In this document: positions 1 to 57,640 of the stretch, in pieces
Layout: each line of letters begins with the position of its first letter
Numbering within the stretch: position 1 is the first letter of the stretch
Virus record (IMG/VR): IMGVR_UViG_3300021600_000003
Location: 19,249-83,248 of that record
Source: a virus
Lineage: Duplodnaviria > Heunggongvirae > Uroviricota > Caudoviricetes
DNA length: 64,000 nucleotides
Reading direction: 5' to 3' (one strand)
Translations under genes and position numbers: made by a program
Notes under the pieces: generated by a model
What the model saw: the letters and a program-made list of their open reading frames with translations, nothing else
What the model was told of the DNA's origin: nothing
Database searches by the model: none

Positions 1-2238
1 TATAAGAGGTAAAACACTATCTGCAAATTCTTTTGCTTGCATTTGACCTTTATATTGATATATTGCATATTGATCATAAAAATATGCTACTGCATTTGAT
101 AAAAAAGGATCAGATAACATAGTAGGAGATGATGTTAAGAATACTAATTTATCTATACTTGTAGCATCTTTTAATTTTTCTATATCTACTTTTTGAATAT
201 TACCTGCTTTATCAACTACATTATCAAAATTAGTTTGACTAAAGTTTCCAGTTAATGCTCTCATAATTTGAGCCCCTTCTCCTATAAAGGTTCCGTGCAT
301 GTCTTCTCTAAGTTTAGCTTTCATTACCTCACCCTTTACTGTATCATACTTCCTTTGTAGTTCTGCCTTATATCTATGTATATAACCATCCATCCATTTG
401 TCTGTTATTTTTGCCAAATGAGTAGTTAATTTATTTTCTATATTTTTATTAGAAACAGCAAAATTAGTAGTAACATTACCCATGTTATTTAACATCTTAT
501 CATATATTGCCAATCCTTCTGTCTCAGAAGGCCATTTATCTTTGATATATGATAACATATTTTGAAACTCATCAGTAATTGTTTTAAAAGAAGTAGCAAA
601 TGTAGAATATGCTTGTAATTCACTAACATTATCTAACAGTTTATCTATTGTATTACTGGTCTGCATCTTCTTAATAGCAGCATTCATAGCATCTGGAATA
701 GTCTCCATTGAACGATATGTGTCACCTAGATTTTGAGCAACATTTAACATCTTTAATAACCTATGATTATTATCTGTAGGATTTTCCATAATATCCTTTA
801 GAAGATCTCCTGCTATAGCAAAACGAGATATTATATCAAATATTCTATTATAGTCTTTATTTGCTGGATCTTGTAACTCCTCAATAAGAGCTTTCATATT
901 CTTGCTCTCAACATTAACTCTGAATACTTTAGCAATCTGTTTTTTGATAGCTTTAGTAAACTCATACATAGCTTTTATGATATCTCCTGCCTCATATGTC
1001 TCAGGAGTTTCTTCTTCCATATTATCAAAAAATACACTATCATATACAGACATAACCTTCTTAACATTAAGATTACTTATATCTCCTTGTATAATTTGGT
1101 TAGCTGCCTTAATAAAAGGAGAATTAGCATCAAATAAAGGTTCTGTATAAATAGCTGGAGAGTTTATATGAAATAACTTTCTTAAAAACTTAAAGAAGTC
1201 ATGAGCCATTTGTCTTAACCAACCTCTCTTTTTTCCATATTTTGCATCTGCCTCATTTCTATATGCTGCCTTTACATATTCACCTATTTGTTGAGCAATA
1301 GCTTCTCTTTTTATCTTATCTATATCTGGACGTCCATTCTTCTGATAAGCTGGGTCTGTACTATATTTCTTGTATATCTCACTGTAGAGTGGCATATCTA
1401 TAATCTTTGCCATCATTTCCATCTTTAAAGGATGTTCATCTGGTAATAATTCAGTAAAGAAGTGAGATACCTCATGAGGTAATTCCTCAATCATAGCTCC
1501 TCTTTTTATTAAGATAGTATAATCTCTAATAAGAGCAACACCATTTCTATCTAAGTTATCAAACTCAGCTACTCTAGCATTAGGATTTAACTTCTTCATA
1601 AAGTTAAGCATATCCTGTACAGAAGGGTCTTGTAGAAATGGATGGTTTAACCATAGATTATCTCCTATAAGATTTAGAGAAGATGAGGTAAATTGCTTTA
1701 GATATGTAGCTCTTAGATAATCAGTTATGTGTGCAAATCCTCCACTTTGACCCAGAAGATATTTTACTACTAACTCTTCTGGAATATCAATCTTCCATTG
1801 ATTTAATCCTATACGAGTAATTACCTCTCGAGTAAATTGCTTATTAATATCAGCAATAATATTCTCTTCAAAACTTTTTAGTCCTACCTTTGGGAATATT
1901 TTTAAAGCTAGATTAACAATATTTTCACCAACAGCTCCTATTGCTCCTTCTTTTTCACTAGTAGAAGAATTAGCTTGTTCAGCTATTTCATGTAAAAATA
2001 ACTCTGGATCACTTTCAAATGATGTTTTATAAAGACCTTTAATTTCGTCTTTATATTTAAAAACATCATCTACCATTTTCAACTGTTCATCAGTTAAATT
2101 AGGTATATCAGTTTTTACCTCATTCTTTGCAGATAGTATATTATTATCTATATTAAAAAGAGATGACTGTACAGCTAATTCTTTAACTGCATCAATGATA
2201 CCAAGTTCTATTTTATTTTTATCTAGTCTACATTTCAT
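1..2238 (-). CDS. giant virion protein, C-terminally truncated by the window edge (at least 746 aa in window)
   Basis: ATG at 2238-2236 on the minus strand, with the frame open down to position 1 (own translation MKCRLDKNKIELGIIDAVKEL...). It is absent from the ORF track because it has no stop in the window. An in-frame stop lies upstream at 2265-2263. It contains an HEVSH (HExxH-like) motif. Confidence 0.6.
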   Translation of the reverse strand, partial: MKCRLDKNKIELGIIDAVKELAVQSSLFNIDNNILSAKNEVKTDIPNLTDEQLKMVDDVFKYKDEIKGLYKTSFESDPELFLHEIAEQANSSTSEKEGAIGAVGENIVNLALKIFPKVGLKSFEENIIADINKQFTREVITRIGLNQWKIDIPEELVVKYLLGQSGGFAHITDYLRATYLKQFTSSSLNLIGDNLWLNHPFLQDPSVQDMLNFMKKLNPNARVAEFDNLDRNGVALIRDYTILIKRGAMIEELPHEVSHFFTELLPDEHPLKMEMMAKIIDMPLYSEIYKKYSTDPAYQKNGRPDIDKIKREAIAQQIGEYVKAAYRNEADAKYGKKRGWLRQMAHDFFKFLRKLFHINSPAIYTEPLFDANSPFIKAANQIIQGDISNLNVKKVMSVYDSVFFDNMEEETPETYEAGDIIKAMYEFTKAIKKQIAKVFRVNVESKNMKALIEELQDPANKDYNRIFDIISRFAIAGDLLKDIMENPTDNNHRLLKMLNVAQNLGDTYRSMETIPDAMNAAIKKMQTSNTIDKLLDNVSELQAYSTFATSFKTITDEFQNMLSYIKDKWPSETEGLAIYDKMLNNMGNVTTNFAVSNKNIENKLTTHLAKITDKWMDGYIHRYKAELQRKYDTVKGEVMKAKLREDMHGTFIGEGAQIMRALTGNFSQTNFDNVVDKAGNIQKVDIEKLKDATSIDKLVFLTSSPTMLSDPFLSNAVAYFYDQYAIYQYKGQMQAKEFADSVLPLI

Positions 2239-2718: not shown

Positions 2719-5700
2719 TTATATTTTACAATTTAATGGATCAATTTCATTATCTTTTACATCATCAAGCATAAAGTCATTTTTACCATCTAATTTAACA
2801 CTTTGCTCCTTTGCTAATCTATTCATAAAATGAGTAATATTTGTATTACCTAATTTACTATATAGTTTTCCTGTATGAGATTTTTGATAAGGTAGTCCCG
2901 GACGATCTTTCTTCTTTTTCTGATATAAATCACTTTCATGAACTCCATATTGTTCACTTGTTTCATCTGGTGCAGCAGCTATTTCATTATTAATAATAAC
3001 AGGATTATTCCATTTTAAGTCAGGATTCATATCCTTAAACATCTTTTCAAATTGTTTAAGATAATTTGTAATAACTTCATTAGTTGCTGCTTCTGTAGTC
3101 TCTCCATCTTTAAAAGAAGCTCCTTCTTTAAGGAAACGATTAAAGTTATTAATAGATGTTTCTACTACATTTTTGATAATCATAGGAGGCACCAAGTAAG
3201 AGAATGAACCTTTATTTCTCTCTAGATGAGAAGATTGTGTAAGCAGGTAATATCCTAGTACGTTAAATATCTGACGTATTTCTTTTACATTTGCTGAATC
3301 TTTATAGAAGTCTAGTCTATCTTGGTTCTGTCTAAGTTTAGCCTCAATAGTAGGAAAGCTAGATATATCAAACATTACTAACTTCTCAAAGTTATCTCTA
3401 AGAACTGTTTCTTCAGCTTCTCTATCTTTGGGATTTGGAGATAGATTAAAGGTTATATAGTTTTGAGGTAAAGCATTTAATACATCTTTAAAATCTGGAA
3501 CACCATCTTTCATAGGATCAATACCATGTTCTGATTTAGTATCAATACTTTGTATAAGAGGTATTTCTCTTAACTCTGAGTACTTTGAAGTAAGAATATC
3601 CAACTGAGATGATAATAAACTTTTACTATATAAAGCTCCAATCTTTTCATCTTCAGATAAATTATCTACCTTAGAAAGAAACTCTTTAGCAAAGGCTTTA
3701 TAACTATCAGTACTCTCAACCAAAGGTCTAAGTAAAGGAGATATATCATATTCAAAAAACTCATAAAGTTTATTAGCATTCTCTCCATCCTTATAGATAA
3801 AGAAGTTAAGATATGTAGAATATATAAAATCAGATATTACTCTCATCTCTACCTTTCTTCTATCCTCTGGAGTACCAAATGTCTGCCATACTATATTCTG
3901 TAATACATTTTGGAATTCTTTAACAAAGAATTTGTTATCATTTATTAATATATTTGGAAATGCATTTGATAACATATTTTTAACAGTCTCATCATTATAG
4001 AAAGGAGTTACCATACTTTCATCTTGAATCTTATTTTCAAATTCAGGGTTTGACATACCTGATACTTGACGTGCTTGTTTTAAAGCTTCTGCATATGAAA
4101 TAGCAGATAAACTATTAACTTTTGTTGAGTTTCTTGATAATCCCTTAATAAATAATAAGTAGAACATATCACCATCAGCCAATACTGTTCCATAATAAGA
4201 AGCTATATCCTTAGCCATATCAGTATAAGATGGATTCTCTCTAAGAAACTGTTCCATATTTCTTTTATACTTTGGTGCATTACGCTGGAATTCTCCATAC
4301 TTTTCAGTAAAATCTGCTAAATCTTTTTCAGAAAAAGATAAGTGTTTATCACCTAAATAGTTCTGAGATGCTGGACCTGCAGCAAACATATATTGATTAA
4401 TACTAGTTTTTCCATTAGTTTCTTCATTCTTAACTCGATACTTTCCCCATCCCGGAAAACCAGTTTTAGCATCCGATATTGGAAATATTTCACTACCTGA
4501 CCATTTCTGAACAGAAGATACTAATGCATGTTTTGGACGAGCATCTGTACCTAATTTATCTAATTCATTTTGTACGTCTTGTACAACAGGATTATTTAAG
4601 AATAAAATTGTTCTTTCTAAAGGAACTCCTTGTGCCATTAACCATATCATTGGTTTAACATTTAACCAAGTTATTCCAAGAGAAGGAAATATATCAGCAT
4701 TTTTAAATAAGTCTAATAGAGAAGATACTTCTGCTGATAAGTCTTTTGTAGTTCTGTCCCCATTCTCATTAAATACTGATATTTTAATACCCTTACTTGT
4801 ATCTTTATTATACAATAAAGGAGTATGTACAAAACGTTTATATGTTTTTTCTTTATTGTTCTTTACTTCTTCAAGTAGATTTATACCTGTATCTATTCTC
4901 TTAAGTAATGCATTAAGTGGACCAGCACGATATTCTCTCTGAATAGTTAATCCTGATATCTCTAATAAAGGAAGCATAGAACGGAAACGTACTAGAGAAC
5001 CTAAAATAGAACGGATAGCAAAATTATTATGGTGATTTGCAATATTAGTTACATAACTCATTGCCTCTAGAGAGGTAAGTTGTCTACCTAATTCTACTGG
5101 ACTTCCTGTTTTTCTCTCAAGATTTTCTTCTGCTAACTTCTTAATCTTAGCTATAGAGTCTGTTTCTGTAAGAAAATCATAGTTCTCAGGAGCTTCCATG
5201 AACTCTAATATTGATGATACTATATCATTAGTTACACCTTTAATATAATTATCTCTTTTACTTTCCATCTCATTTAATTCCTTCATTAAAGGAGATGAGA
5301 TTCTTTTACCTTTATTCAAATCAACAATTAAAGAAGATACTGCATCTACGATATCATTAAATTCTCCTTTTTTTCGTAACTTAAATAAAGTAGATTTAGG
5401 ATCTATAAATCCTGCAACTGTACGATATCCATCCTCTTCAACAATAGTTAAATCTCTATCTAAATCACTAACTGTCTTACCTTTTAGTGCATATACCTCA
5501 TTCTCTAAAAATTCTTTCTTTATAGAATTTAATTGTTCATCATCTGTTGATGTATTTTTAGCTAATAAGAATGATTTTTCTGTACCAATTTTAGTAGATA
5601 ATTCTTCTATCTTATTTGTAATATCACTATATTGTTCAGTAGGACGCTTAATTATACGACCTAAACTATTTAGATACCTGAATGATGCAGTTACTGTATC

Positions 5701-8700
5701 AATATCATTATCACTACCTGTCTGAGCATAGAACTCAGGAGGAAGTAATATCATATCTCCAAATGCTTCTGGCAAGAATTCTCTTACTATAATATGTGAG
5801 GAGAAGTTTAAGTCTTGTAAAGGGATACGTACACCAATAAATGTAATAGAATCTCCATATGTATTTAACCACTTCTCATTACGTATTGCCTCATTTAGTC
5901 TTTTAAGAGTAGTAATACGTTCTCCATCTGGATGATTTAAGTTAAGAAGGGGATAGAACTGCTTACGAAAAGATATACGACTTTCTACAGGAAGTGTAGA
6001 TATAGCTTTACCATCTACAATTTTTAATCCATGCCATTTTAATTCTATTGTTCCTCTATATTCTTCTGGTAAAGAATCTTCTAGTGAAGAATAAGTACCA
6101 TCTTTATTCTTTTTTCTAAATTTAATTGGTTCATTTGAACCCATCTCAAATGACTGATAGAATTTGGTACCATTTAACTTTACTTTACGGAAATTATCAT
6201 CTACAATACCAGCAATTAAATCAATAATATTCTTTTGGAAAGGAAGAGCCTCTAAAAAAGTAGAAAAATTACCATCATCATTACTATTAAGTAAGTCTAA
6301 TACTTTTTCATCAATATCTCCTATCTCTAACATTCTCTCTCTCAAATATTTAACAAAGGTTGCTTTATCTCTCATTTTACCATCAATATCTAATCCCATA
6401 TCTGTAAGAGCACGAGATGAATTAATACGAATATAATCACTTAAACTTCTTACTACTTTCTTATAAGAATTAAGAAGAGTAGTAGATACTGTTCCATATT
6501 TCTGTTGAGATAGTAATCCCTCATAGAAGATAGATCGTAACTGAACAGCAAATGTAGAACGATCATTTAGATGAGTAGTATTTTGTTGAAACTTGAAAAA
6601 TCCTCCTGCGTGGAATGTTGAATGTAAAGTTTTACCAACAGTACTTGATAAACCATCTTTACTAAATACATTTTCTACTGGAGGAGTAAATGCTTTACTA
6701 CCACTATCCATTACCATATAATCAATATCCTCTCCATACATCTTATCAAAAAGAGGACGTGTAATTCTATTCATATCAAATTCAGGAAGTAATACCCTTA
6801 ACCCCATCTTATCAAACGAAGGAGTCATTGGAGAATTAGTCTCATAATAAATAGGTCCTGTTAATGCATATTTAGATACATTAAAAGAAGAGTAACTACC
6901 ATCCTTATTAGGACCATTTTTAATATGATCACTTTCTTCATCTGAAAGTTCATGACCTAAACCTTGTTTTAATAGTAATATCTGTCTAATATATTCTTTT
7001 TCATCTTTATCCCAATCCCATACCATCTCTCTCATTCTCATAAAACGATTAGTATCTAAGTTAAGATAAGCACCAGCATCAGCAACTTCCATATCTTTAA
7101 AAGCAGTTAATATATTTACTTTCTCAACTCTCATTTGCTCAAGAGTAATATTAGCTCTTTCTCCTGTAGATTTCTGCTTACGAAGTAATAATAAGGCTTT
7201 AAGCATATTATCATCTTTTAAAGCAATACTCTCCATTTTAATATCCTTCATAACTACTTTCTTAACTAACTGATAGTTTTTTTGAGAAGTAATACCTTTT
7301 GATGATTGATATGTATCTTTTAGTGATCGAGCTGCTGTCTGAGCTGCCATAGCTTCTGCCATAATCTCATCTACCATATTGATAGAACCATTATTAGCAA
7401 TAATCTTTCTTCTCTTGATTGGATCTTTATAGTAAGTGTAATCTCCAAAGAATAGTAAACTATCCTCCATTGTCATAATGAAGTCATTAGCTATAATATC
7501 TCTAAATATACCATCAGATAACTGACCTAGTGTATTTATTTTCATATAGAATGGATTACGAACAGAGTTAATAGCTGATAGAGTATATAGTATATTATTA
7601 CTTTTCTCAGATAAGCTATTATTAAATACATTCTTATATGAGTTATCATTTGTTATTGCAACCTTCTCAAAATAATTACTTATCTCTAAATTGATTTGAT
7701 TGAAAAGAGTAGGATCTTTTACCTCAAGACGACTCATAAGAGTATTCATATCCCCACCTTCTTCTCTTATAAATGCTTTTATTTTTCCTCTAGAAATAGG
7801 AAGCATTTCATCAAATACACCTAATTTATCTAATCCTTTATTAGCATGATTAATATCTCTTTTAGCATTAGCATCATCTAGATAGTATTGGAACTTCCAA
7901 GCTGCATACTGTATATAATTTCTAACCTGATTAAGGAAAGTAGGATTAACAAAACCATCTCTTTCAATATTAACAGCTTTAATGAACTTTCTTTCTATAC
8001 CATCAGTTTCTTGTAAAGATAATCTCCAAGCTGTATTAGATGTCTCTACTCTTCTCATTTCAGAAGAACCATCAGACTCATATAGTACAGCATCCATTAA
8101 CATTTTCTCTTCTGCAGATGAATCTTGTACTCTCTTACTTTCTAAAGAGTCCTCACCTATGTCTGATATCTGAGATATAATAGATATACCCATTCTCATA
8201 TTTGGTACTTTAGTACCAGTCTGATTAAATATTCTATTAAATAACCAAGAGTTTATAATTTGAGGATTCTTTATTGGATCTAAGTGAGATAATGCTGGGA
8301 ACTTTGCAAAGTCACTAAAACTATTAATGTGCTCATTTATAAGCATTTCTGTTACCAACATGTTATTTGGTAAGAAGTGAGAGAATTGCATCTTGTCTAT
8401 AACAATCATAGAACCTGATGAGAAACGTTTATGATAGTTTTTCTCAATACGAGCTAACTGTTGGAATAGAGGAAGATATGCTGCAAATACTTTATATTTA
8501 GGATCTCTAGTTAATTTTCTATCCTTACCATCAAATAACATTTTACTAACAGGACTTGGAGAGAAAATACGACGAGCAAATCCTTGTAACTCCTCCTCCT
8601 TTTCTCTTAAGGTGTTCATAGCAATTATCTTTTGTACACCATCTAAATCTGGATTAATATTATACAGTTGTAGCTGTTTCCACTCTTTAACTAAGTTTAC

Positions 8701-11700
8701 TATATTTGTATTAAATAAATGAGCAATTTGCTCACCTGTTTTCTTATGGTAAGTGAATAGGATATCTCGTATTCTATTATAAATACTTCTTATCTCATTA
8801 AAATGATTAGGGTTTTCATATGCTTTATCATTTAATTCTATACCTAAATTAGAGAAGAATTCTTGTAATTCTCCTTTGTTAGGATCATTTGTATGGAAAT
8901 TCTTATATACATAGAATGCATTAAAATAGAAACGATTTCCAATATGATCATATATAAAAGGATTCTCACTCTCAAAGTCATTCATAAATTGAGTTAAACC
9001 TTGTTCACCATTTGCAAATATCTTATACATTGCATAATAAATACTTATATATTTTTTATTACTTTCATCAAAACGTTTCTTTGTATTTATCTGAAAACCT
9101 TTAGTAAAATCATTAAGTATACTATTAATAATACTCTCTAAGTTTTCTCTTGTTTGTATAGGAGATTGTATATAAGGATTCTCATTATCAGGAGCAAAGT
9201 TCATTCTTCTGACAACTGTATCAAATGGAACTTTTCTTAATGACATTACGAGCTCAAAATGCGTAAGGAATGACATAAGACGACCATGACTTTCTATATC
9301 TTCTGCAGATGCTTGTTGTGATGATAAGAGTTGTGATAAGTTTCGTAATTTTGGAATTAAACCTTCTATACCTTTTTCAGTATCTCCAAGTAATCTATCT
9401 CTAACTGATCTTAACTCAGGAAACAACATCATACTATGTTGTGAGTTAAGTTGTAATATCATTGTAGATAATGTAGGAGAACCCTGTAAGATATTTAAGG
9501 TCTTATAGAATGCTTCCTCTCTTGAGAGAGTAAGTGGTAATCCTGCTGTATTTGTTTCGAATTGTTCTTCGTTTAAATCAGATGATAATAAACGAGGTAT
9601 ACCATTAAAGAAGTCTTTTAATTCTTCTCTAGCAAATTCAATAGCTTGTTTTAGATTACCCGGATTATTATAATCTAAATCTGGAGACTCAGCTATATCT
9701 GGTTTTGTATCTTCATCACTTGTATCATTTGCTCCTTCCTCTTCTTTCTGCATAAATTCACTTAAACTCTCTTCATCTACAATACTAGATATTCTATTCT
9801 GATTTTTATCAAATAGATTACGTAGACTTCTATATTGAGAGAATTTAAAATAGGCACGCATAAAGTCAGCAAACCTAATTAAATCTCCATTTGGATTTTT
9901 CTCTAATATAAAATCTAAAAGATTACTATAATATGCTAAGTTTTCATCATTTGTTTTTAAATGACCTTCAACTACTTCATCCTCAGATTTATCAATAGCA
10001 TCATTTATCTGCTCACGCATTGAGTTAATAGCCTGCTTTTGGTTTTCTAAAGATTGTCTTATTATATCATGTAGAGTTTTAACTCCATCCATTGTCATTA
10101 AATCAGATATAACAACATTCTTTTCGGTTAGATATTGAGTAAGATTGAAATCAGCAAAGTCCCTGAACTCTCTAAATGTCATATTATCAATAACTCCACT
10201 GTCTCCAGTAGTTGAATCTATGAATAGTGAGTTAAGATGAGTAAATATAGCATTATCAGTAGAGAAATTACTTCTATTAAATGTATTAGTATTTAACTTC
10301 TCAAACATATCTAGATAAGAAATAGTACCCTTATTTGTAAACCATTCCCATAAGCTACGTAAAGCATCTAGAATTTTTCCAAATAAAGACTTTGCTTTCT
10401 TATTTCCCTCTAGAGGAGAATATGTTTTTGGAGATGTTGCATATCTCCTAAATTCTTCAGCTAGTAATTCTTCTATATCTATATTATTTGCTGTAGAAGT
10501 ATTTAGATTTCTAGAATCTCTTGTAGTAAAATCAATATTCTGTTTTTGTAGAGATTTATATAAATCTAATTTCTCACCTTTAGTAAGATATAACTGACTG
10601 AAACGATGCCAACCTTCATGATAATCTGCTCCCTTATTAACCTTTTCATAGAAGTTAATAGCATCTATAAAGAACTCAGCACCTGTTTGTGAGTTCATAG
10701 TACGAATAATATTAATTCTACCTTTTAGTTCTGGGAATCTTTCCTCTAACCAAGCTTGTCCTTTTAGTAAATCTTCTCTTGTAGCTAATGCGTCATTTGA
10801 ACGCAATATCATTTTTAAAGGATTATCTTTCTTAATATTCTTATTAAACCATGAAGTTAAACTTGGATTAAGAGGATTAACTGCTACATTGTTTTTTGCA
10901 GTAGGTATAATCCTATCATACATAGATTCTATTTTATCTCTATATAACTGAATTTCTTTAGATAAAATAGTACTATCTTGATTTTTATTAGTAACTTTAT
11001 TATAAGCAGTTATAGATAATCTTAAACTTCCTTTATCTTTAGTATTTAGTATTGTAGCAACATTTGAGATACTTGTAGTTAGATATATAATATCATTCTC
11101 TCCTTTAGATTGTAAACCTGTTGCTTGAGCAATCATCATATCATAGATGGATGCTTGTTTTCCATACTTAGTTTTTTCTCTTTCACTAAGAAATCCATCG
11201 GTGGTTTTAATATCAATAACCTTAAATGTACCATCTGGATATATAGCTAATAAATCTAATTCACCTCTCATACCTAATTCCCTAGAGTATAAGAAGAAAT
11301 TATTCTTTTGTTGAGGAGTTAATGATGAATTATCAACTACTGAACGTAAGTCTGTTAGATGAGCATCTTGATAGTTTGTTTGAATAAAGTTAATGGCATA
11401 CATCATGTCATTAATAAATTCTTCCATATATCTACTTACAACTGGAGATGGTAGTGACTTTAGAGGAGCATTATTTTCTGAGAAACGTCTGAATAAGTCT
11501 GTAAATTCTTTATCTTGTAGTATTTTCTCCTTAAAAGTATTATAGTCAATAGGATTAGTAAAGAACTTTCTTATTGTTATATCTGCTAAATCACCTCTTC
11601 TAGTAGAGATTGTTCCAGTAGTATCTTTACTTTTAACAAATGACCCATTTAAGAACTCAGTAACTCTAATTAACTTCATATTACTTCCATCCTCGTTCTT

Positions 11701-12189
11701 AAGTGTAGAAAAGTCCCATGTCATAGGATTACCTACACTAGTACCAAACTTAACCATTTCTGTAACTTGTGAAAAAGATGAGGATATCTTATCTAAGAAT
11801 GGTTTAACTTCTTCTCTAGTAATACTAGATGGAGCATTTTTAATTTCTCCTACATTTATACCTAATAATTTTTCTAATTGTTCTTTATTCTCATATTGTT
11901 CAATATTCTCTTTAGAGAACTGACCTTCTGTATGTGTTAATTCTGAGAACATTTTTCTTACAGAATCTGCCTTAACAAGTAAATGCAGCTTTCCTGCTAC
12001 ATACTGAGTCATAGCAAATGCATACTCAGTAGCATTTTTCTGTTTATCTTGTTTAAGGAATTCCTCAAACACAACATTATATACACTCTTGAGAATAGCT
12101 TCTGGAGATATAGTATAATCAGCAGAGATTACTCTACTTACTATTTCTAGGGCTAGTCTTTCTTTTTCTGGGCTTAGTGAACAAATCAT
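2719..12189 (-). CDS. giant virion/ejection protein, 3156 aa (crAss-like cargo-type protein). The N-terminal region carries a RecB/Cas4-like PD-(D/E)XK nuclease motif.
   Basis: Uninterrupted 9.47 kb ORF. Its start ATG overlaps the upstream gene's stop (TAATG). Residues ~309-350 read GELDLLAIYPDGTFKVIDIKTT...KYGKQASIY, i.e. PD...D-I-K...QxxxY. It also contains HEGWH. Confidence 0.85.
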   Translation of the reverse strand: MICSLSPEKERLALEIVSRVISADYTISPEAILKSVYNVVFEEFLKQDKQKNATEYAFAMTQYVAGKLHLLVKADSVRKMFSELTHTEGQFSKENIEQYENKEQLEKLLGINVGEIKNAPSSITREEVKPFLDKISSSFSQVTEMVKFGTSVGNPMTWDFSTLKNEDGSNMKLIRVTEFLNGSFVKSKDTTGTISTRRGDLADITIRKFFTNPIDYNTFKEKILQDKEFTDLFRRFSENNAPLKSLPSPVVSRYMEEFINDMMYAINFIQTNYQDAHLTDLRSVVDNSSLTPQQKNNFFLYSRELGMRGELDLLAIYPDGTFKVIDIKTTDGFLSEREKTKYGKQASIYDMMIAQATGLQSKGENDIIYLTTSISNVATILNTKDKGSLRLSITAYNKVTNKNQDSTILSKEIQLYRDKIESMYDRIIPTAKNNVAVNPLNPSLTSWFNKNIKKDNPLKMILRSNDALATREDLLKGQAWLEERFPELKGRINIIRTMNSQTGAEFFIDAINFYEKVNKGADYHEGWHRFSQLYLTKGEKLDLYKSLQKQNIDFTTRDSRNLNTSTANNIDIEELLAEEFRRYATSPKTYSPLEGNKKAKSLFGKILDALRSLWEWFTNKGTISYLDMFEKLNTNTFNRSNFSTDNAIFTHLNSLFIDSTTGDSGVIDNMTFREFRDFADFNLTQYLTEKNVVISDLMTMDGVKTLHDIIRQSLENQKQAINSMREQINDAIDKSEDEVVEGHLKTNDENLAYYSNLLDFILEKNPNGDLIRFADFMRAYFKFSQYRSLRNLFDKNQNRISSIVDEESLSEFMQKEEEGANDTSDEDTKPDIAESPDLDYNNPGNLKQAIEFAREELKDFFNGIPRLLSSDLNEEQFETNTAGLPLTLSREEAFYKTLNILQGSPTLSTMILQLNSQHSMMLFPELRSVRDRLLGDTEKGIEGLIPKLRNLSQLLSSQQASAEDIESHGRLMSFLTHFELVMSLRKVPFDTVVRRMNFAPDNENPYIQSPIQTRENLESIINSILNDFTKGFQINTKKRFDESNKKYISIYYAMYKIFANGEQGLTQFMNDFESENPFIYDHIGNRFYFNAFYVYKNFHTNDPNKGELQEFFSNLGIELNDKAYENPNHFNEIRSIYNRIRDILFTYHKKTGEQIAHLFNTNIVNLVKEWKQLQLYNINPDLDGVQKIIAMNTLREKEEELQGFARRIFSPSPVSKMLFDGKDRKLTRDPKYKVFAAYLPLFQQLARIEKNYHKRFSSGSMIVIDKMQFSHFLPNNMLVTEMLINEHINSFSDFAKFPALSHLDPIKNPQIINSWLFNRIFNQTGTKVPNMRMGISIISQISDIGEDSLESKRVQDSSAEEKMLMDAVLYESDGSSEMRRVETSNTAWRLSLQETDGIERKFIKAVNIERDGFVNPTFLNQVRNYIQYAAWKFQYYLDDANAKRDINHANKGLDKLGVFDEMLPISRGKIKAFIREEGGDMNTLMSRLEVKDPTLFNQINLEISNYFEKVAITNDNSYKNVFNNSLSEKSNNILYTLSAINSVRNPFYMKINTLGQLSDGIFRDIIANDFIMTMEDSLLFFGDYTYYKDPIKRRKIIANNGSINMVDEIMAEAMAAQTAARSLKDTYQSSKGITSQKNYQLVKKVVMKDIKMESIALKDDNMLKALLLLRKQKSTGERANITLEQMRVEKVNILTAFKDMEVADAGAYLNLDTNRFMRMREMVWDWDKDEKEYIRQILLLKQGLGHELSDEESDHIKNGPNKDGSYSSFNVSKYALTGPIYYETNSPMTPSFDKMGLRVLLPEFDMNRITRPLFDKMYGEDIDYMVMDSGSKAFTPPVENVFSKDGLSSTVGKTLHSTFHAGGFFKFQQNTTHLNDRSTFAVQLRSIFYEGLLSQQKYGTVSTTLLNSYKKVVRSLSDYIRINSSRALTDMGLDIDGKMRDKATFVKYLRERMLEIGDIDEKVLDLLNSNDDGNFSTFLEALPFQKNIIDLIAGIVDDNFRKVKLNGTKFYQSFEMGSNEPIKFRKKNKDGTYSSLEDSLPEEYRGTIELKWHGLKIVDGKAISTLPVESRISFRKQFYPLLNLNHPDGERITTLKRLNEAIRNEKWLNTYGDSITFIGVRIPLQDLNFSSHIIVREFLPEAFGDMILLPPEFYAQTGSDNDIDTVTASFRYLNSLGRIIKRPTEQYSDITNKIEELSTKIGTEKSFLLAKNTSTDDEQLNSIKKEFLENEVYALKGKTVSDLDRDLTIVEEDGYRTVAGFIDPKSTLFKLRKKGEFNDIVDAVSSLIVDLNKGKRISSPLMKELNEMESKRDNYIKGVTNDIVSSILEFMEAPENYDFLTETDSIAKIKKLAEENLERKTGSPVELGRQLTSLEAMSYVTNIANHHNNFAIRSILGSLVRFRSMLPLLEISGLTIQREYRAGPLNALLKRIDTGINLLEEVKNNKEKTYKRFVHTPLLYNKDTSKGIKISVFNENGDRTTKDLSAEVSSLLDLFKNADIFPSLGITWLNVKPMIWLMAQGVPLERTILFLNNPVVQDVQNELDKLGTDARPKHALVSSVQKWSGSEIFPISDAKTGFPGWGKYRVKNEETNGKTSINQYMFAAGPASQNYLGDKHLSFSEKDLADFTEKYGEFQRNAPKYKRNMEQFLRENPSYTDMAKDIASYYGTVLADGDMFYLLFIKGLSRNSTKVNSLSAISYAEALKQARQVSGMSNPEFENKIQDESMVTPFYNDETVKNMLSNAFPNILINDNKFFVKEFQNVLQNIVWQTFGTPEDRRKVEMRVISDFIYSTYLNFFIYKDGENANKLYEFFEYDISPLLRPLVESTDSYKAFAKEFLSKVDNLSEDEKIGALYSKSLLSSQLDILTSKYSELREIPLIQSIDTKSEHGIDPMKDGVPDFKDVLNALPQNYITFNLSPNPKDREAEETVLRDNFEKLVMFDISSFPTIEAKLRQNQDRLDFYKDSANVKEIRQIFNVLGYYLLTQSSHLERNKGSFSYLVPPMIIKNVVETSINNFNRFLKEGASFKDGETTEAATNEVITNYLKQFEKMFKDMNPDLKWNNPVIINNEIAAAPDETSEQYGVHESDLYQKKKKDRPGLPYQKSHTGKLYSKLGNTNITHFMNRLAKEQSVKLDGKNDFMLDDVKDNEIDPLNCKI

Positions 12190-15100
12190 TAGCAGTCGTC
12201 TTTTGTAACATCCCCTAAATTAAGAGTAGGGTCTGGATTATTAAATGCCTTTAAAATCTCATCATCTGATAAAGTTTCTCCTACTTTAACTATAGTAGTA
12301 GATGGGGACTTTTCTGTTTGAGCTTCTTGGTTTTGTATCTTTGTTAGTTCATTCATATCATTATCTAATGTTATAGCCATTCTCTTATTTACTCTAGCAT
12401 ATCCTTCTATATTTGGAGATGTTTTTATAGGTATAGATGAGGTGGCTACGTTTGCGTTAATAAAATTAGAGTAGTTCTCGTTTCCTTCTCTTAGTATTTC
12501 TTCCTGCAAAGGTAACTCATTTCTACTATCATAGTACGCTTTACTAATATTTAATGGACTTTTATATATATCTTCTAATTTAGTAATAGATTTCAATTCA
12601 TCGATAGTTATCTTTCCAGATGTTAAGAACTTCTTAAAGTTTTTTAAATCAACTAATAATATAACTGTTCCTAAATTTATAGGCTTAAACATATCTGGAC
12701 GAAGTAAAGTTTCTAGACTTCTCATATTATCAACAGTAGCTTCTAAATTACCTTTTATAGCAGCCTCAAATATATTTTCTCCATTCTCTGCTTTTAAGAT
12801 ATCTATTAGTTTCTCTCCTTTATTATTTTTAGCTTCTGCTATGCTAACTGGATGAAATTCAACTGATTCTGTTCCTGCAGAAGGTTTATTCAAATCCTTA
12901 TACATATCAAAATTTATACGCATAGAACGTTGATATATACCATGTATAGTGATATTCTCAGAAGATATATTACCTTTCTCACTTGACATATGACCTCTAG
13001 AAAAAAGCTCATTAGCCATATGCATAGTTTTACCTTTTGGTATAGTATAACTATTATTTGTACCTTCTCTATATAGCATTCCTTGAGTTACAAAATTTAT
13101 AGAAGCTGTAACTTTTCCGTTAGCTATTACATTCTTAAGGGTAGATAATACATTAACCCCATTAAATGAAGGATGTAAAGATATAGGAGTAGCTGTTAAA
13201 GGAGCTAAAGCAAAAGGAGGAGCAACTACATCACTTCTTCTTTTTCCTATATTCTGTTCACTATATAAATCAAATCCATCTAAATAGAATAAAAGATTAC
13301 TACCTTGAGCAAATGGAGAACCTACTTCATCAAACTTTACAAAGTTACCATCCTTATCAGCTACTACTCCATATATCTCGCCTTTTTTAGATATAGATAA
13401 TACTAATTTATAGTCCTCTTTTCTTAGTTTTCCAGAAGCTAATTTATCTAAAAAGTTAAAACGAGCTATATTATTATCTGATGTACGAATAGTACCTTTC
13501 TCAATATCCTTTGGATTAGATGTTACTACATTAATAGTTCCTTCATTTTTACCATTATCTGCATTATTATCTATCCTATTATTATGGATTATAAGTCCTT
13601 CTTTATCAGCCTCTTCCTTAAAGGTTGTCTCATTTTCAATAGCTTGCTGATGTAGACGATATGCTTGTCTTACCTCATCCAATAAAGAAGGTGGAACCAT
13701 TCCTGCTTCTTCTACAGAAGTATCATTTACTGTTGTTATAATAGATTCTCCTATTTTACTTATTGTTAAAGTTTTATTATTCTTATCTAAATCTTCTGGT
13801 TTATATTCTCTTCTATCTCTACCAGTTTTATTAATATCTTCCTGTTCAACAAATATATCTCCTACTTTAACTAAAGTTGTACTACTTGTTTGAGTATTTC
13901 CTTTTGTACCACTATGATGTCCTTTAGAACTTGGATTAGTAGTAGTAAGTCTTAATATATCACCATCTTTAGTATTTAAAGCAGCTTCTACAGCATTTTT
14001 AAATTTAATTTCTGTTATAGAAGTTTCCTTAGCATCTTCTACTGTAGGAGTAGGCTCATTTACAGCTTCTTCTGTGAACTGTCCAGTAACTTCTGTTTTT
14101 AAAGTATCAACTTTAGCTGTATTATATGCAGTAATTAAATCTATAACTTCTTGAGGTATCTCTACTTCTAAGTTACCCATCTCTTTTAAAAATCTTTCTA
14201 TAGCTCTATCAAGATTATCTGCATTTACATTAGGATCTGCAGCTTGGAATATTTGTATAAGTTGTTCACGTAATCCCTCTAGAGTAGAAGTTTTAGCCTC
14301 TTCCTCTTTTTTAGCCTGTTCTTCTGCTTTTATTCTATCTTTTTCTTCTTGTATAGCTTTTTCTTCTTCTGCTTTTACTGCTTCTTCTGCTTTAATCTCA
14401 GGATTCTGTTCTTTCTTAATATCACCTATTAATATTCTATCCTGTTCTTCTGGAGTCATTTTTTCAGCCTCTTCTTGTGTATATCCTTTATCTTTGAGTT
14501 TTTCTATTTTGATTTTTGCCATTAAGTTGTTATACAACTTTATTTTATCATTCCATCTAGATAATCCAGTTGCTGGATCAGAGTATTCTTTTACTAAAGA
14601 ATGAGCTTGTGCAGCAGTTGCTAGATATATCTCTTTTTGAAGAACAGCATTTTGATAGTGTCCAAGAGTAGTATCTATTTCTGCTTGTGCTAATTTTATA
14701 TCTGTACCCTTATCAAATTTAAAAATAGAATCAGAAGACGTTACATGTTCTGGTAAATTTTGACCTAATAAATTAAGTTCTTCTAATTGTTTATCTAGTT
14801 GTTGTTGAATAATCTTCTTAGTATCATTATCTAGATTTTCATTATTAATAACATCTGTATACATTGCTACTTTGGCAGCTAACATATTATAAGCACTAAA
14901 TACAGATGGAGTCTTAGTAAATGGATTCATTTCATTTTCTAAGTCAGCATATCTATTTGCTGCATTTGTAGCTGCATACTTTTGCATAGTATAATCAAAG
15001 ATATGAACTCTTAATCCAGCTAATTGTGAGAAGTAGTCTTCCTTACTTAATTTTAATGGATTATTGAATTTCAGTGCTTCTATCTTATGATAATCATCAT

Positions 15101-17258
15101 ACATATGTTGTGCAATATCAGCCCACTTTTTAGGATCTTCTGCCATCTCCCCAGTAACTCCATAGATTGCTAATTCTCCCGGAGTTTTATTTGTCCAATT
15201 CTTTATTCTTGATATTAGTTCTTCACCAGTACCATGCATAATATGACCTCTTAAGAAGTCACCAAATAATACATGTTGTAAGTATTCTCTTTTTTCTGGG
15301 TCAGTTATATCATCAATCTCTACTTTTCTAGCAAACATACTTTGTATCTTCTCTAGTTTAGCATTTATCTCAAGAGTTCTTTCTTTAACCTTATCTTCAT
15401 TAAAACTACCATCTGCATTATATAAATCACCTGTCATTACGTCTACATTCATCCATGCTGCTTTAGCATTTTTGATATTAGCAACTAAAGTAGCATGCTC
15501 ATGTTCTTCTGTCTTTCTTTCTCCTAAGGGAAGAATATGACCTTTTTGTCTTTCTCCTGCTAATTTAGCAAAACCTGCACCACCTAATATACCCATTACA
15601 GCACCTGCCATAATAGAGTCTGCTACTTCTTTATCATTTCCATGATAAGCATCTACTGTCTGTTGCCATAATTGTTCAAAGAAAGGTTTAGCATTAGTAA
15701 GAATACCTTGACTATCAGTATCATCACCTCTTCTCATATATGAACCTGCTGCTACACGAGTTGCAGCTTGTTGAGCATTTTCTTCCCAATAACCTTCCAT
15801 TATAGTAGCCTTAACACCTTCCTTACCATAAAAAGATATTCTTCTTCCCATAGTAGGAAGAAATCCTTTACTTGCTTTCTCAGCTATTTTTGCTGCATCT
15901 TCTCCTGCTAATTTTATTTCTGCTGCTGTCTTACCTGCATTTTTAGCTACTGTTTCTGCTTCTAATATAGCACTAGCTATCTTTCTTTCAGCTCTACTCT
16001 GTATTACATTTCCACTTTCATCTAATAATTCTCTAGTAAATATACTACCTACTCTTCTATTTCCTGCAGCTTGTTGGAACCATTTGTTCTCTAGTGCTCC
16101 AGATAATGATAAGATAAACATATTTAATCCAAACTGAGTAGGTGCATGTTCTGCAGATATTCTTCTAGCATCCTTCTCAGAATATCCTTTACCCATTAAA
16201 TCTTTTACATTAGATTGTAAACCATCTGTAGTTTCAGATACACTCTCCATTACTGTATTAAACATATGAGCAGTCATACCTCCTACATTACGAGAACCTG
16301 TTAGTCCCTCTAATGCTGTTCCTGTAGCTTTTGCAAAACGCCCTGCTGTTGCTGTTTCACCAACTCCTGCTGCTAATATCTTCTGAAATACATTAGCATC
16401 TTCAGCTGCTACAGCAAGTTTTGATAATTGTGTTAATTTTCCTAAACCCATAGCTGGTAAAGCAAATTGCAGAAGAAATCCTGCCCCATCTGCCATATCA
16501 CTTTGCCATAAATAAGGATCCATTAACTTAGAGAATGCTCCTTTATTATCGTAATTTATAGCTTTATATGTAGGAACAATTTCTTGTTTTACATAATCAT
16601 CTACATTCCTCATTGCACGAGCTAATACATTATCACTAACATCTAACCAAAAGTTATTTTTAGGACCACCATATGCCTCTGTAATCTCTCTTGATCCACT
16701 CGTAATCATACTATATAATGTTCCCACACCACCTATTACTCCAGTTGCGAATTTTGATAATACTCTTAATGCTGTTGTACCAGTAAATCTCCATGCTTTA
16801 CCAAACATAGAGTAATTATCCCATATATGTGTTTTATAGAAATCCTCATTTTCAGCTAAAGATACATCAGGGTTAAATCCAAACTTAGTTTTTCCACTTT
16901 CACTCCACCAATGCTGGTTAGTAAACTTTTCTTGACCTGCTTGATATTTTACCATTCTATCTAATCCTATACCACTCTTGAGAGATTGATTATTAGCCAT
17001 ACCTTGCAGCATATAATCTTTACCTATATCCCTCATTTTTGGATCAGTAGAAGTTATATAATCATTTAATGGAGGTACTTTATCAGAAGCTAATATACCA
17101 TCAGTAGATAAATCTTTTGGAATATATGTTATATCTGGAATATGAACATCCCCATAGAGAGAACTCAATCTCTCTTGAGTATCTAAACGTGTAGCTAATA
17201 GTCTATCATTAAATAGACCAGTAGCTAACTCAGATGGTATTCTTTCTATATCAGGCAT
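12189..17258 (-). CDS. giant virion protein, 1689 aa, with a Gly-rich N-terminal region and a central Lys/Glu-rich coiled coil
   Basis: ORF track entry. Central segment EEAEKMTPEEQDRILIGDIKKEQNPEIKAEEAVKAEEEKAIQEEKDRIKAEEQAKKEEEAK. Translationally coupled to its neighbours. Confidence 0.85.
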   Translation of the reverse strand: MPDIERIPSELATGLFNDRLLATRLDTQERLSSLYGDVHIPDITYIPKDLSTDGILASDKVPPLNDYITSTDPKMRDIGKDYMLQGMANNQSLKSGIGLDRMVKYQAGQEKFTNQHWWSESGKTKFGFNPDVSLAENEDFYKTHIWDNYSMFGKAWRFTGTTALRVLSKFATGVIGGVGTLYSMITSGSREITEAYGGPKNNFWLDVSDNVLARAMRNVDDYVKQEIVPTYKAINYDNKGAFSKLMDPYLWQSDMADGAGFLLQFALPAMGLGKLTQLSKLAVAAEDANVFQKILAAGVGETATAGRFAKATGTALEGLTGSRNVGGMTAHMFNTVMESVSETTDGLQSNVKDLMGKGYSEKDARRISAEHAPTQFGLNMFILSLSGALENKWFQQAAGNRRVGSIFTRELLDESGNVIQSRAERKIASAILEAETVAKNAGKTAAEIKLAGEDAAKIAEKASKGFLPTMGRRISFYGKEGVKATIMEGYWEENAQQAATRVAAGSYMRRGDDTDSQGILTNAKPFFEQLWQQTVDAYHGNDKEVADSIMAGAVMGILGGAGFAKLAGERQKGHILPLGERKTEEHEHATLVANIKNAKAAWMNVDVMTGDLYNADGSFNEDKVKERTLEINAKLEKIQSMFARKVEIDDITDPEKREYLQHVLFGDFLRGHIMHGTGEELISRIKNWTNKTPGELAIYGVTGEMAEDPKKWADIAQHMYDDYHKIEALKFNNPLKLSKEDYFSQLAGLRVHIFDYTMQKYAATNAANRYADLENEMNPFTKTPSVFSAYNMLAAKVAMYTDVINNENLDNDTKKIIQQQLDKQLEELNLLGQNLPEHVTSSDSIFKFDKGTDIKLAQAEIDTTLGHYQNAVLQKEIYLATAAQAHSLVKEYSDPATGLSRWNDKIKLYNNLMAKIKIEKLKDKGYTQEEAEKMTPEEQDRILIGDIKKEQNPEIKAEEAVKAEEEKAIQEEKDRIKAEEQAKKEEEAKTSTLEGLREQLIQIFQAADPNVNADNLDRAIERFLKEMGNLEVEIPQEVIDLITAYNTAKVDTLKTEVTGQFTEEAVNEPTPTVEDAKETSITEIKFKNAVEAALNTKDGDILRLTTTNPSSKGHHSGTKGNTQTSSTTLVKVGDIFVEQEDINKTGRDRREYKPEDLDKNNKTLTISKIGESIITTVNDTSVEEAGMVPPSLLDEVRQAYRLHQQAIENETTFKEEADKEGLIIHNNRIDNNADNGKNEGTINVVTSNPKDIEKGTIRTSDNNIARFNFLDKLASGKLRKEDYKLVLSISKKGEIYGVVADKDGNFVKFDEVGSPFAQGSNLLFYLDGFDLYSEQNIGKRRSDVVAPPFALAPLTATPISLHPSFNGVNVLSTLKNVIANGKVTASINFVTQGMLYREGTNNSYTIPKGKTMHMANELFSRGHMSSEKGNISSENITIHGIYQRSMRINFDMYKDLNKPSAGTESVEFHPVSIAEAKNNKGEKLIDILKAENGENIFEAAIKGNLEATVDNMRSLETLLRPDMFKPINLGTVILLVDLKNFKKFLTSGKITIDELKSITKLEDIYKSPLNISKAYYDSRNELPLQEEILREGNENYSNFINANVATSSIPIKTSPNIEGYARVNKRMAITLDNDMNELTKIQNQEAQTEKSPSTTIVKVGETLSDDEILKAFNNPDPTLNLGDVTKDDC

Positions 17259-32256: not shown

Positions 32257-32529
32257 TTATTTTATTTTTTTAAAAAACCATACAATATTTGTTTCAGGAA
32301 TTCGTTTCTTATCTGCATCTAGATAGTTATCTCCAACTTTGAAACCTCTTCTCCAGTAACAGAATTCATCAAATCCAATTTCTGTGTAATCATTTCCATC
32401 TTCATCTGTTCCAACCAAGTCTGTTAAAGCAGTATCGCTATATAACATTATTACCTTAACAGTATCCTGAGAGTAACAATTAATGGTGATGATGATTGCC
32501 AGTATGAATAGTACGATACGTATTAGCAT
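32257..32529 (-). CDS. small protein with an N-terminal signal/TM segment, 90 aa
   Basis: MLIRIVLFILAIIITINCYSQ hydrophobic N-terminus. The 5' end overlaps the 311-aa ORF. Confidence 0.35.
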   Translation of the reverse strand: MLIRIVLFILAIIITINCYSQDTVKVIMLYSDTALTDLVGTDEDGNDYTEIGFDEFCYWRRGFKVGDNYLDADKKRIPETNIVWFFKKIK

Positions 32530-40241: not shown

Positions 40242-40258
40242 ATTATAATTTTTATTTA

Positions 40259-56339: not shown

Positions 56340-56843
56340 TTAATATTCTCCCATTTCATTGCTACCTTTCATTTTAGTTCCTAATTCATCATCAGCTATC
56401 TTTCTTAGATTTGTGGCAGATGCTACTAACTTTTCGAACTTATCTACAATAGTAATACGATCTTTCATATCTCCTCCCATTGGAGTATCTCTCAAATATG
56501 TTCTCCATCTATGACTTTCAGCTTCCATTTCATCTGCTGCTTGTGAAGCTTCTGACTTAAACAATCCCTGTAATCTTTCAATTGCAGGGTCAATTAATTC
56601 ATCATCTTCATTAAAGTCTCCTAATGTTTCTTTAACATCATATAATGCTGCCTCAGAACGTTCTTCTTGTGGCAAATTTCTATATGGAGAATCTGGATAT
56701 GATAAGTGAGCAATATATGTTAGATATGGAATAGCATCACTATCTCCATACTTAGTAATAATCTTATTCAACTCAGGAATACTAAAACCCTCAGCAGTTA
56801 TCTCAATTGATCCATTAACATATTCTAATATTCTTGGTGTCAT
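56340..56843 (-). CDS. hypothetical protein, 167 aa; candidate terminase small subunit by position
   Basis: Immediately upstream of, and coupled to, terL. Confidence 0.45.
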   Translation of the reverse strand: MTPRILEYVNGSIEITAEGFSIPELNKIITKYGDSDAIPYLTYIAHLSYPDSPYRNLPQEERSEAALYDVKETLGDFNEDDELIDPAIERLQGLFKSEASQAADEMEAESHRWRTYLRDTPMGGDMKDRITIVDKFEKLVASATNLRKIADDELGTKMKGSNEMGEY

Positions 56844-57640
56844 TTACTATAAATTGTTTCTAGCATTTCTATTACCTCTTTCTTTCTATATGGTAATTTT
56901 ATCTTATCTATCTTTAATACGATAGGTAATCCTTTTTTATCTAATACTGGTAAATTATCATTATTAGGATCTCTTTCTAATTGAATATGTTCTAATATAA
57001 TATCTCCCGGCTTAAGTAATCCTCTATTGGACTTCCATAGAAGATACATATATAGAGACATCTTAATTGAATAAATATTAGCATTACATTCCTCTAGATG
57101 AGAAAGTGGTGGTAATAACCTTGCTGGGTCTGTCCATTTTGATGAGAATGCCTTATAATCAATCTTGGCATCAGTCTTATAATCCCAGATATTTATCTTC
57201 TTATTAACTACAATTACTTTATCAGCTTGTCCACATATCATGTGATCTATATCATATATCATTAACTCTCTATACTCTGTATTATCTTGTAACTGATTAA
57301 TAGGAATTGAATGTTTATAATTATCTATTATAGGACAGAACTCAATATTACATTTAACATTATAGAAGTTTGGAGTGTCATGAGAATCCATTTCTCTTAA
57401 ACTATGATATTTGGTTCCGATAGATGATGCTATATCTCTCTTTCTTTCCCATTTAGCTAATACCTCTTGAGTGGTTGTTGGTTCTCCGAGTCTTGTTTTC
57501 TTTTTTGCTACCTTGGCAGCAATCTCATTCCAGTTAACTTTATTCTTAAAGCGTTCTGTAAATGCTGATACAGAGATTAATTCTCTGTTATCATCTAAAA
57601 TATACTGATGGCTCTCCTCTATAAACTTTACTTTATGCAT
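56840..57640 (-). CDS. PD-(D/E)XK family nuclease (RecB/Cas4-like), 266 aa
   Basis: MIYDIDHMICGQADKVIVVNKKINIWDYKTDAK fits the D...D-x-K core. Confidence 0.65.
   Translation of the reverse strand: MHKVKFIEESHQYILDDNRELISVSAFTERFKNKVNWNEIAAKVAKKKTRLGEPTTTQEVLAKWERKRDIASSIGTKYHSLREMDSHDTPNFYNVKCNIEFCPIIDNYKHSIPINQLQDNTEYRELMIYDIDHMICGQADKVIVVNKKINIWDYKTDAKIDYKAFSSKWTDPARLLPPLSHLEECNANIYSIKMSLYMYLLWKSNRGLLKPGDIILEHIQLERDPNNDNLPVLDKKGLPIVLKIDKIKLPYRKKEVIEMLETIYSK
57477..57490. repeat. exact 14-mer GTTGGTTCTCCGAG, copy c (inside the PD-(D/E)XK nuclease gene)
   Basis: Exact match. Encodes GEPTT, a third frame. Shares the extended GGTTGTTGGTTCTCCGAGT context with copy d. Confidence 0.8.

Follow-up and report, generated by a model that had tools for sequence, protein, structure and literature searches.

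No viruses of the human gut are more abundant than the crAss-like phages, which also occur widely in the sea. In some of them, PD-(D/E)XK nuclease domains (PDDEXK) were detected in the large transcription proteins by Yutin et al. 2021 (PMC7886860), according to whom the typical number of PDDEXK nucleases in a crAss-like phage is one to three, PDDEXK_a being part of the structural block and PDDEXK_b of the replication block. The same statement was made in a review from 2023, in which the role of the domain was deemed unclear (PMC10136315). The transcription proteins themselves have been studied in Cellulophaga phage phi14:2, whose gp65-67 were annotated from tandem mass spectrometry (MS/MS) of virions; gp66 is translocated into the cell together with the DNA and transcribes single-stranded DNA (ssDNA) or denatured DNA, but not double-stranded DNA, in vitro, and its eukaryotic relative QDE-1 requires a helicase and RPA (preprint 10.1101/2020.03.07.982082). 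In crAss001, gp47, gp49 and gp50 were detected in virions (PMC10172136). Here we describe a nuclease domain of this kind in a 64,000-nt stretch of viral DNA (positions 19,249 to 83,248 of IMG/VR record IMGVR_UViG_3300021600_000003), hereafter referred to as the window, to which all coordinates refer; residue numbers are those of its longest open reading frame (ORF), which is located on the minus strand (2719..12189) and encodes a giant protein of 3156 amino acids (aa).

As judged from profile searches, conservation and a structural model, this giant almost certainly harbors a complete RecB-family PD-(D/E)XK nuclease domain, which is part of an N-terminal extension of about 700-730 aa; this extension begins with a helical segment, continues with the nuclease (aa ~164-426) and closes with an HExxH-containing module (aa ~457-727). 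The main features are the following:

2719..12189, minus strand: giant ORF of 3156 aa, predicted homologue of crAss-like virion RNA polymerases with an N-terminal extension of ~730 aa (BLASTP, tblastn)
10912..11700, minus strand: predicted RecB-family PD-(D/E)XK nuclease domain, aa ~164-426 (Pfam, PHROG, PDB profile, AlphaFold2 (AF2) model, conservation)
11563..11604, minus strand: motif I helix RRGDLADITIRKFF, aa 196-209, with the invariant G199-xxx-D203 (alignments; helix 45-62 of the AF2 model)
11143..11265, minus strand: motifs II-IV, aa 309-349 (alignment)
10009..10821, minus strand: HExxH module, aa ~457-727, with HEGWH at aa 524-528 (10606-10620) and EE..AEEF at aa 573-579 (invariant columns)
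5698..7509, minus strand: RNA polymerase core alignable to phi14:2 gp66, ending at the DxDxD motif DNDID (aa 2160-2164, window 5698-5712) (BLASTP)
12189..17258, minus strand: 1689-aa cargo protein encoded upstream of the giant, homologue of phi14:2 gp67 (BLASTP, E 7e-13)

An earlier sequence-only reading of the window had claimed a nuclease of the RecB/Cas4/lambda-exonuclease type near the N-terminus of the giant, and this claim was borne out by profile searches. The fragment aa 200-450 matched PF12705 (PDDEXK_1) with E 5e-5 and 23.8 bits (cut-off 22), of the 15 members of the protein family that were aligned, 13 matched PF12705 as well (best E 5e-8), and the domain of the giant also matched PHROG 298 'exonuclease' (1e-7). 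A domain profile generated from 15 proteins (alignment A1, aa 150-455) identified in the PDB the RecB-like nuclease domain of mycobacterial AdnB (E 1.4e-3), whereby D326 of the giant was aligned on D1014 of AdnB, the residue that is mutated in nuclease-dead AdnB structures. Against 1.84 billion representatives, the same profile returned 603 proteins at E<=1e-3, and all ten of the small stand-alone proteins tested among these matches exceeded the PF12705 cut-off. When the whole protein (phmmer) and the full-length family profile were searched against PDB sequences, the AdnB nuclease was the sole match, and the structure of phi14:2 gp66 was not matched.

The AF2 model of aa 150-455 reached a mean predicted local distance difference test (pLDDT) of 76.9 and a predicted template modeling score (pTM) of 0.74, with block means of 85-94 over the catalytic strands and helix. 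In this model, the alpha-beta-beta-beta-alpha-beta core that the sequence-only reading had demanded of such a structure was present, judged solely by the order of secondary-structure elements, and a long helical insert (aa ~216-272) is located between motif I and the beta-core. The top matches of a Foldseek search with this model against the PDB were exclusively nucleases of the RecB/Cas4/lambda-exonuclease type.

The peptide that had originally drawn attention to the domain, GELDLLAIYPDGTFKVIDIKTTDGFLSEREKTKYGKQASIYDMM, is present as quoted (residues 309-352, window 11134-11265, minus strand); the span 11140-11265 assigned to it covers residues 309-350 only, whereas the peptide itself extends to 11134 (residue 352). 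A regular expression for the RecB family (G..D hh, 6-20 aa, hh[DE].K[ST], 10-40 aa, Q...Y), which was composed post hoc with the site already seen, matched nowhere else in the six-frame translation of the window and in 1 of 20,000 shuffled versions of the giant. Conservation of the putative catalytic residues provides a stronger argument than the regular expression. In an alignment of 34 family members, 30 of which are full length, the columns G199, D203, G309, D312, D326, K328, Q345 and Y349 were invariant in all 30 full-length proteins, down to about 24% identity, and these include the six catalytic residues. Motifs I-IV follow each other in the order known from RecB-like nucleases: motif I, which is located about 110 residues upstream of motif II, is followed by motif II (G309-E-L-D312, GELDLL), motif III (D326-I-K328) and motif IV (Q345-xxx-Y349). 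The site is intact in all full-length proteins, which argues for an active enzyme, and from sequence and model we consider the domain very probably catalytically active and metal-dependent.

The interpretation given in the sequence-only reading is only partly supported: the nuclease family was right, the choice of D319 and a Cas4 label beyond the fold did not hold, and the role proposed for the domain is one among several that would fit. The aspartate of the 'PD' (D319, 11233-11235), which had been proposed as catalytic, drifts among relatives (D, N, E, K, S, T), the 'PDG' is a beta-hairpin turn, and the motif II aspartate is D312. The label 'Cas4-like' applies at the level of the fold, but not to Cas4 in the strict sense, since the domain has no cysteine and hence no iron-sulfur (Fe-S) cluster of the four-cysteine type; no cysteine was found anywhere in aa 4-3153 of the giant. 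In addition, PF01930 (Cas_Cas4) was not matched at E<=1, and the gene is located in a structural/cargo operon of a phage with no CRISPR context. An assignment to the lambda exonuclease/YqaJ family was likewise rejected, as PF09588 was not matched in the Pfam search.

The HExxH module comes immediately after the nuclease, an order that was found in 33 proteins. HEGWH and the downstream EE..AEEF are invariant among the aligned relatives, and by these motifs the module is a probable zincin-like metallopeptidase. A second-iteration local hidden Markov model (HMM) of the module detected crAss001 gp47 (E 5.4e-18) and cr118_1 gp14 (E 2.7e-24), while Pfam, NCBIfam and PDB profile searches returned no match. 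The AF2 model of the module was poor (pLDDT 64), but showed a helix, strands, the HExxH helix and a Glu helix, an order that fits the description by Iyer et al. 2017 (PMC5512222); Foldseek with this poor model returned nothing below E 0.7.

We next consider the protein to which the nuclease is fused. BLASTP aligned aa 1561-2164 of the giant to residues 859-1365 of phi14:2 gp66, with DNDID placed on DFDID (1361), and tblastn aligned aa 2116-2185 to the crAssphage KP06_gp44 'RNAP catalytic subunit' (RNAP, RNA polymerase; 40% identity, E 8e-6). In a large protein database, the homologues of the giant comprised 13 full-length proteins with 33-71% identity, one with 24% identity and more distant giants, and the DxDxD motif at the position of DNDID was kept in 23 of 23 homologues. 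By its sequence, the giant is thus a homologue of gp66, the experimentally characterized virion RNA polymerase (vRNAP) of phi14:2. The SopA-like central domain PF13981 was matched in five of the 15 family members of a second alignment (A2, the giant and 14 homologues; best E 4.8e-6), and it was not matched in the giant of the window at E<=0.05.

The genomic context is that of a phage late region with terL (54055-56337), portal (51263-54052), major capsid protein (MCP; 48217-49926) and tail proteins, and the synteny terL-portal-MCP-tail-gp67-like-giant corresponds to the position of the cargo/transcription block of the crAss type. The stop codon of the 1689-aa gene overlaps the ATG of the giant (TAATG, 12187-12191), so that translation of the two cargo proteins may be coupled. 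Relatives of TerL among deposited phages were almost exclusively crAss-like (Crassvirales; ~26% identity), and relatives of the clade of the window were found on contigs of 130-170 kb. Neither the giant gene (megablast) nor its N-terminal 500 aa (tblastn) had a match in 50,697 phage records, from which we conclude that the clade is not represented among deposited phages. Judged from these comparisons, the source is a distant crAss-like phage of a very divergent clade. By analogy with the virion proteins of phi14:2 and crAss001, the nuclease domain likely resides in the capsid and enters the cell with the DNA upon ejection.

The exact architecture of the giant is common to about twenty clusters at 50% identity. 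Beyond these, related nuclease domains are present in many other giants of the crAss type, among them fusions of gp67 and gp66, where they precede the polymerase core (P0060, P0063, P0067), gp65-like proteins (P0061, P0094 and others) and gp67-like proteins (P0111, P0098, P0113); most other nuclease-bearing giants sampled matched none of gp65, gp66 and gp67. In crAss001 gp47, a second-iteration local HMM identified the nuclease at aa 1734-1881 (E 1.7e-18) with motif I at 1694-1729, the motifs being legible by eye (GTSVDSVIR / GEVDIL / IYDVKTS / QLSAY), and an HExxH module (HEAFH, aa 2100-2298) follows the nuclease. The protein gp14 of cr118_1 carries the HExxH module and a C-terminal RecD-like superfamily 1 (SF1) helicase without the nuclease; its annotation as 'exonuclease V', which could be read as PD-(D/E)XK, actually refers to this helicase. 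More distant polymerase giants bear other accessory domains, namely a C-terminal cpYpsA/SLOG domain (P0015), a histidine phosphatase (P0016), ART-PolyVal together with a 2OG-Fe(II) oxygenase (P0017) and PF25176 (P0018), and this variety is the pattern of 'polyvalent proteins'.

Structural neighbors of the RecB type are nucleases that work at DNA ends. Like Dna2, AdnAB/AddAB, MGME1, RecE, lambda exonuclease and Cas4, the nuclease of the giant could act on a free DNA end, and the free end at ejection would be the leading end of the incoming phage genome. Limited resection of this end would expose ssDNA, which could serve as a template for a polymerase that uses ssDNA only, or which could allow terminal repeats to anneal. 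Taken as a whole, a nuclease on an injected vRNAP that resects DNA ends is the best explanation we can offer, and we hold it tentatively, at somewhat less than an even chance; that the nuclease acts on the DNA end of the phage itself, a step argued by analogy, is possible to a similar or slightly lower degree. End resection is favored because gp66 uses ssDNA and not duplex DNA, because QDE-1 needs a helicase and RPA, and because cr118_1 gp14 is fused to a RecD-like helicase, which is the other half of an end processor of the RecBCD/AddAB type. That related nuclease domains occur in counterparts of gp65, of gp66 and of gp67, all of which belong to the cargo/transcription block, also speaks for end processing. 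Several observations weigh against this explanation. Neither the family HMM nor the second-iteration HMM found the nuclease in the cargo blocks of phi14:2, p-crAssphage and cr118_1, which means that it is no general requirement of a gp66-type polymerase. Its patchy presence and the variety of accessory domains (ART-PolyVal, 2OG-Fe(II) oxygenase, cpYpsA/SLOG, histidine phosphatase) look more like a conflict or effector toolbox than like a core function, and a phage that resects its own genome end would be at risk if the resection were unlimited and the end not redundant. Finally, the whole 3156-aa protein scored only 18.7 bits (E 0.0018) with PF12705, which is below the cut-off of 22.

The same patchiness would be expected of accessory weaponry, and the sequence-only reading had indeed proposed an injected effector against the host, which would degrade DNA of the host, of plasmids or of rival phages, or nucleic acid of a defense system. 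The conflict domains of the distant giants point in this direction, as does the description of virion RNAPs fused to metallopeptidases as polyvalent proteins, for which injected DNases that possibly degrade host or rival DNA were discussed; PD-(D/E)XK is, however, not among the polyvalent-protein DNases listed there (Iyer et al. 2017, PMC5512222). Moreover, the closest structural relatives need free DNA ends, which a bacterial chromosome does not offer, the one or few polymerase molecules expected per virion would be a poor dose for bulk degradation, and the active site remains unchanged down to 24% identity over many clusters, which is more stable than is typical of anti-defense genes. We therefore regard an effector as unlikely, albeit as a serious competitor. 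Resection of terminal repeats for circularization or concatemer formation, independent of transcription and carried out by an enzyme of the lambda-exonuclease/RecE type with a function in recombination or at genome ends, appears distinctly improbable: the phage already has a stand-alone PDDEXK gene and crAss-like phages usually have another one in the replication block, no partner annealing protein was seen beside the nuclease domain, the YqaJ family was not matched, and the consistent fusion to transcription/cargo proteins would be left unexplained.

Cleavage of RNA and an inactive fold are minor options. The former, in which transcripts or host RNA would be cut in the manner of the N-terminal cap-snatching PD-(D/E)XK endonuclease of influenza PA and bunyavirus L, has very little probability in our view. 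For the latter, a degenerate, non-catalytic PD-(D/E)XK fold that is retained for a role in packaging or in binding DNA, or else a motif arisen by chance, the probability is smaller still. A degenerate fold would be in line with the low whole-protein Pfam score and with substitutions of motif III or IV in three short relatives (P0032, P0037, P0041; 464-522 aa), but none of the six catalytic positions varies among the 30 full-length proteins, in contrast to the neighboring D319, which drifts freely, and a chance motif is ruled out by this invariance together with the profile, fold and shuffle results. Under the preferred explanation of end resection, a conserved DNA-end nuclease on a polymerase with an ssDNA template is a testable candidate for how transcription of a duplex is started; alternatively, it is a candidate for an injected weapon. 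Such tests can build on the present analysis, which indicates the residues suitable for mutation (D203, D312, D326, K328), where the domain begins and ends, and crAss001 gp47 as a model from a cultured phage.

The cargo proteins share a further property: they are almost devoid of cysteine, apart from cysteines at their very ends. Based on cysteine counts, we identified the following:

12181..12183, minus strand: Cys3 of the giant, one of two cysteines in 3156 aa
2728..2730, minus strand: Cys3154 of the giant, third residue from the C-terminus, the other cysteine
12192-12194, minus strand: C1689, last residue and single cysteine of the 1689-aa protein
2706-2708 and 2277-2279: C3 and C146 (last residue), the only cysteines of a 146-aa protein
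2230-2232, minus strand: C3 of ORF 1-2238, sole cysteine in the 746 visible residues (the window start cuts this ORF)
phi14:2: last residue of gp67; C3 and C2179 of 2180 in gp66; C3 in gp65
crAss001: C2339 of 2341 in gp47; C5, C1334 and C2404 of 2412 in gp50; C5 in gp49
cr118_1: C4943 of 4946 plus four internal cysteines in gp14; C3 in gp15
p-crAssphage: C1956 of 1957 plus two internal cysteines in gp45; C3 plus seven internal cysteines in gp44

In the order of the chain, the first protein has a C-terminal cysteine only, the middle ones have cysteines at both ends and the last, gp65-like one has an N-terminal cysteine only, located at residue 3-5. This pattern was seen in five phages from at least three crAss families, and it holds in crAss001 even though gp47 is encoded on the opposite strand to gp50 and gp49. 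Among 87 giants of at least 1200 aa, the frequency of internal cysteines was 0.0003, and a cysteine was present in the last six residues of 71 and in the first six residues of 44 of them. Outside this set, terminal cysteines were confined to four cysteine-rich proteins among the remaining 37 ORFs of the window. In the simplest reading, the pattern suggests that disulfides may link the cargo proteins head to tail, the C-terminus of each being bound to the N-terminus of its successor, which, if true, would mimic the single-polypeptide fusions of other lineages. We encountered it neither in the preprint on phi14:2 nor in the atlas of crAss001, and a full-text search of the literature did not retrieve it either. 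It is also conceivable, at a rather low probability, that the nuclease is the template-preparing part of an injected transcription machine for which other lineages use a RecD-like helicase, so that an RNAP would be coupled to interchangeable RecBCD-like halves and delivered as a cysteine-joined cargo chain.

ORF 1-2238 (minus strand), which starts with MKC, contains HEVSH at aa 255, near the position of HEIMH (aa 245) in phi14:2 gp65, a zincin-bearing RNAP-associated protein. It is 45% identical to a 2068-aa protein encoded after the giant in a related locus (L002), and its BLASTP comparison with phi14:2 gp65 was not significant. Three unannotated ORFs (354, 456 and 567 aa; 39177-43326, minus strand) between the capsid and tail genes consist of 3.7-4.8% cysteine; they contrast with the cysteine-free cargo proteins and recall the disulfide-stabilized tail of crAss001.

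Apart from the giant, the window encodes a second nuclease of the same superfamily:

56840..57640, minus strand: stand-alone PD-(D/E)XK nuclease gene of the structural block (PHROG 298 'exonuclease', E 4.6e-18; motifs GTKYHSLRE / GQADKV / IWDYKT by eye)

The sequence-only reading had placed this gene next to terL; the gene is real, but a 167-aa ORF intervenes. It fits PDDEXK_a of Yutin et al. 2021 (PMC7886860). Both this protein and the domain of the giant matched PHROG 298. An hhalign comparison of the domain profile of the giant with the stand-alone nuclease gave a probability of 0.3%, which is uninformative because the template was a single sequence, and NCBIfam and PDB searches with the stand-alone nuclease were uninformative as well. 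Elsewhere in the late region, a 311-aa virion structural protein (PHROG 34036; 32480-33415, minus strand) starts with MEHTHHHD and ends with HTGNHHHH, and these His-rich termini may reflect metal binding. A gene for a DnaQ-like 'DNA polymerase exonuclease subunit' (PHROG 403, E 8e-49) is located at 34776-35618 (minus strand) within the otherwise structural region.

Compared with the cellular enzymes AdnAB/AddAB/RecBCD, Dna2, MGME1 and EXO5, the nuclease of the giant lacks a helicase in the same polypeptide and is fused to an RNA polymerase instead, and it lacks the Fe-S cluster that Dna2, AddB and EXO5 bear. Its long helical insert distinguishes it from lambda exonuclease, RecE and the alkaline exonucleases (YqaJ-like). 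The vRNAP of phage N4, treated among the polyvalent proteins (PMC5512222), is a giant RNA polymerase that is carried in the virion, injected and fused to a zincin-like HExxH domain and other enzymatic modules, an organization also predicted for the giant of the window; it is, however, a T7-like single-subunit polymerase, whereas the giant of the window is a putative two-barrel polymerase with a DxDxD motif. A close counterpart is crAss001 gp47 ('putative RNA-polymerase subunit'), which carries the same two-module unit of nuclease and HExxH domain. In crAss001, this unit is located at the C-terminal end of a gp67-like protein, while in the phage of the window it forms the N-terminal start of a gp66-like polymerase. 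The polypeptide break thus lies on opposite sides of the unit, preceding it in the window and succeeding it in crAss001, and a cysteine pair flanks the break in both. As in the feature described by Yutin et al. and in the review, a PD-(D/E)XK domain inside a giant RNAP-associated protein is found here alongside a stand-alone PDDEXK_a; those papers note its existence alone, with no residues, fold or function (PMC7886860, PMC10136315), whereas here the nuclease is located at the N-terminus of the catalytic (DxDxD) subunit and in a very divergent clade. A nuclease on a transcription giant of crAss-like phages is therefore already documented, and what the present analysis adds is the active site, the evidence for the fold, the association of the domain with an HExxH module and its connection to crAss001 gp47.

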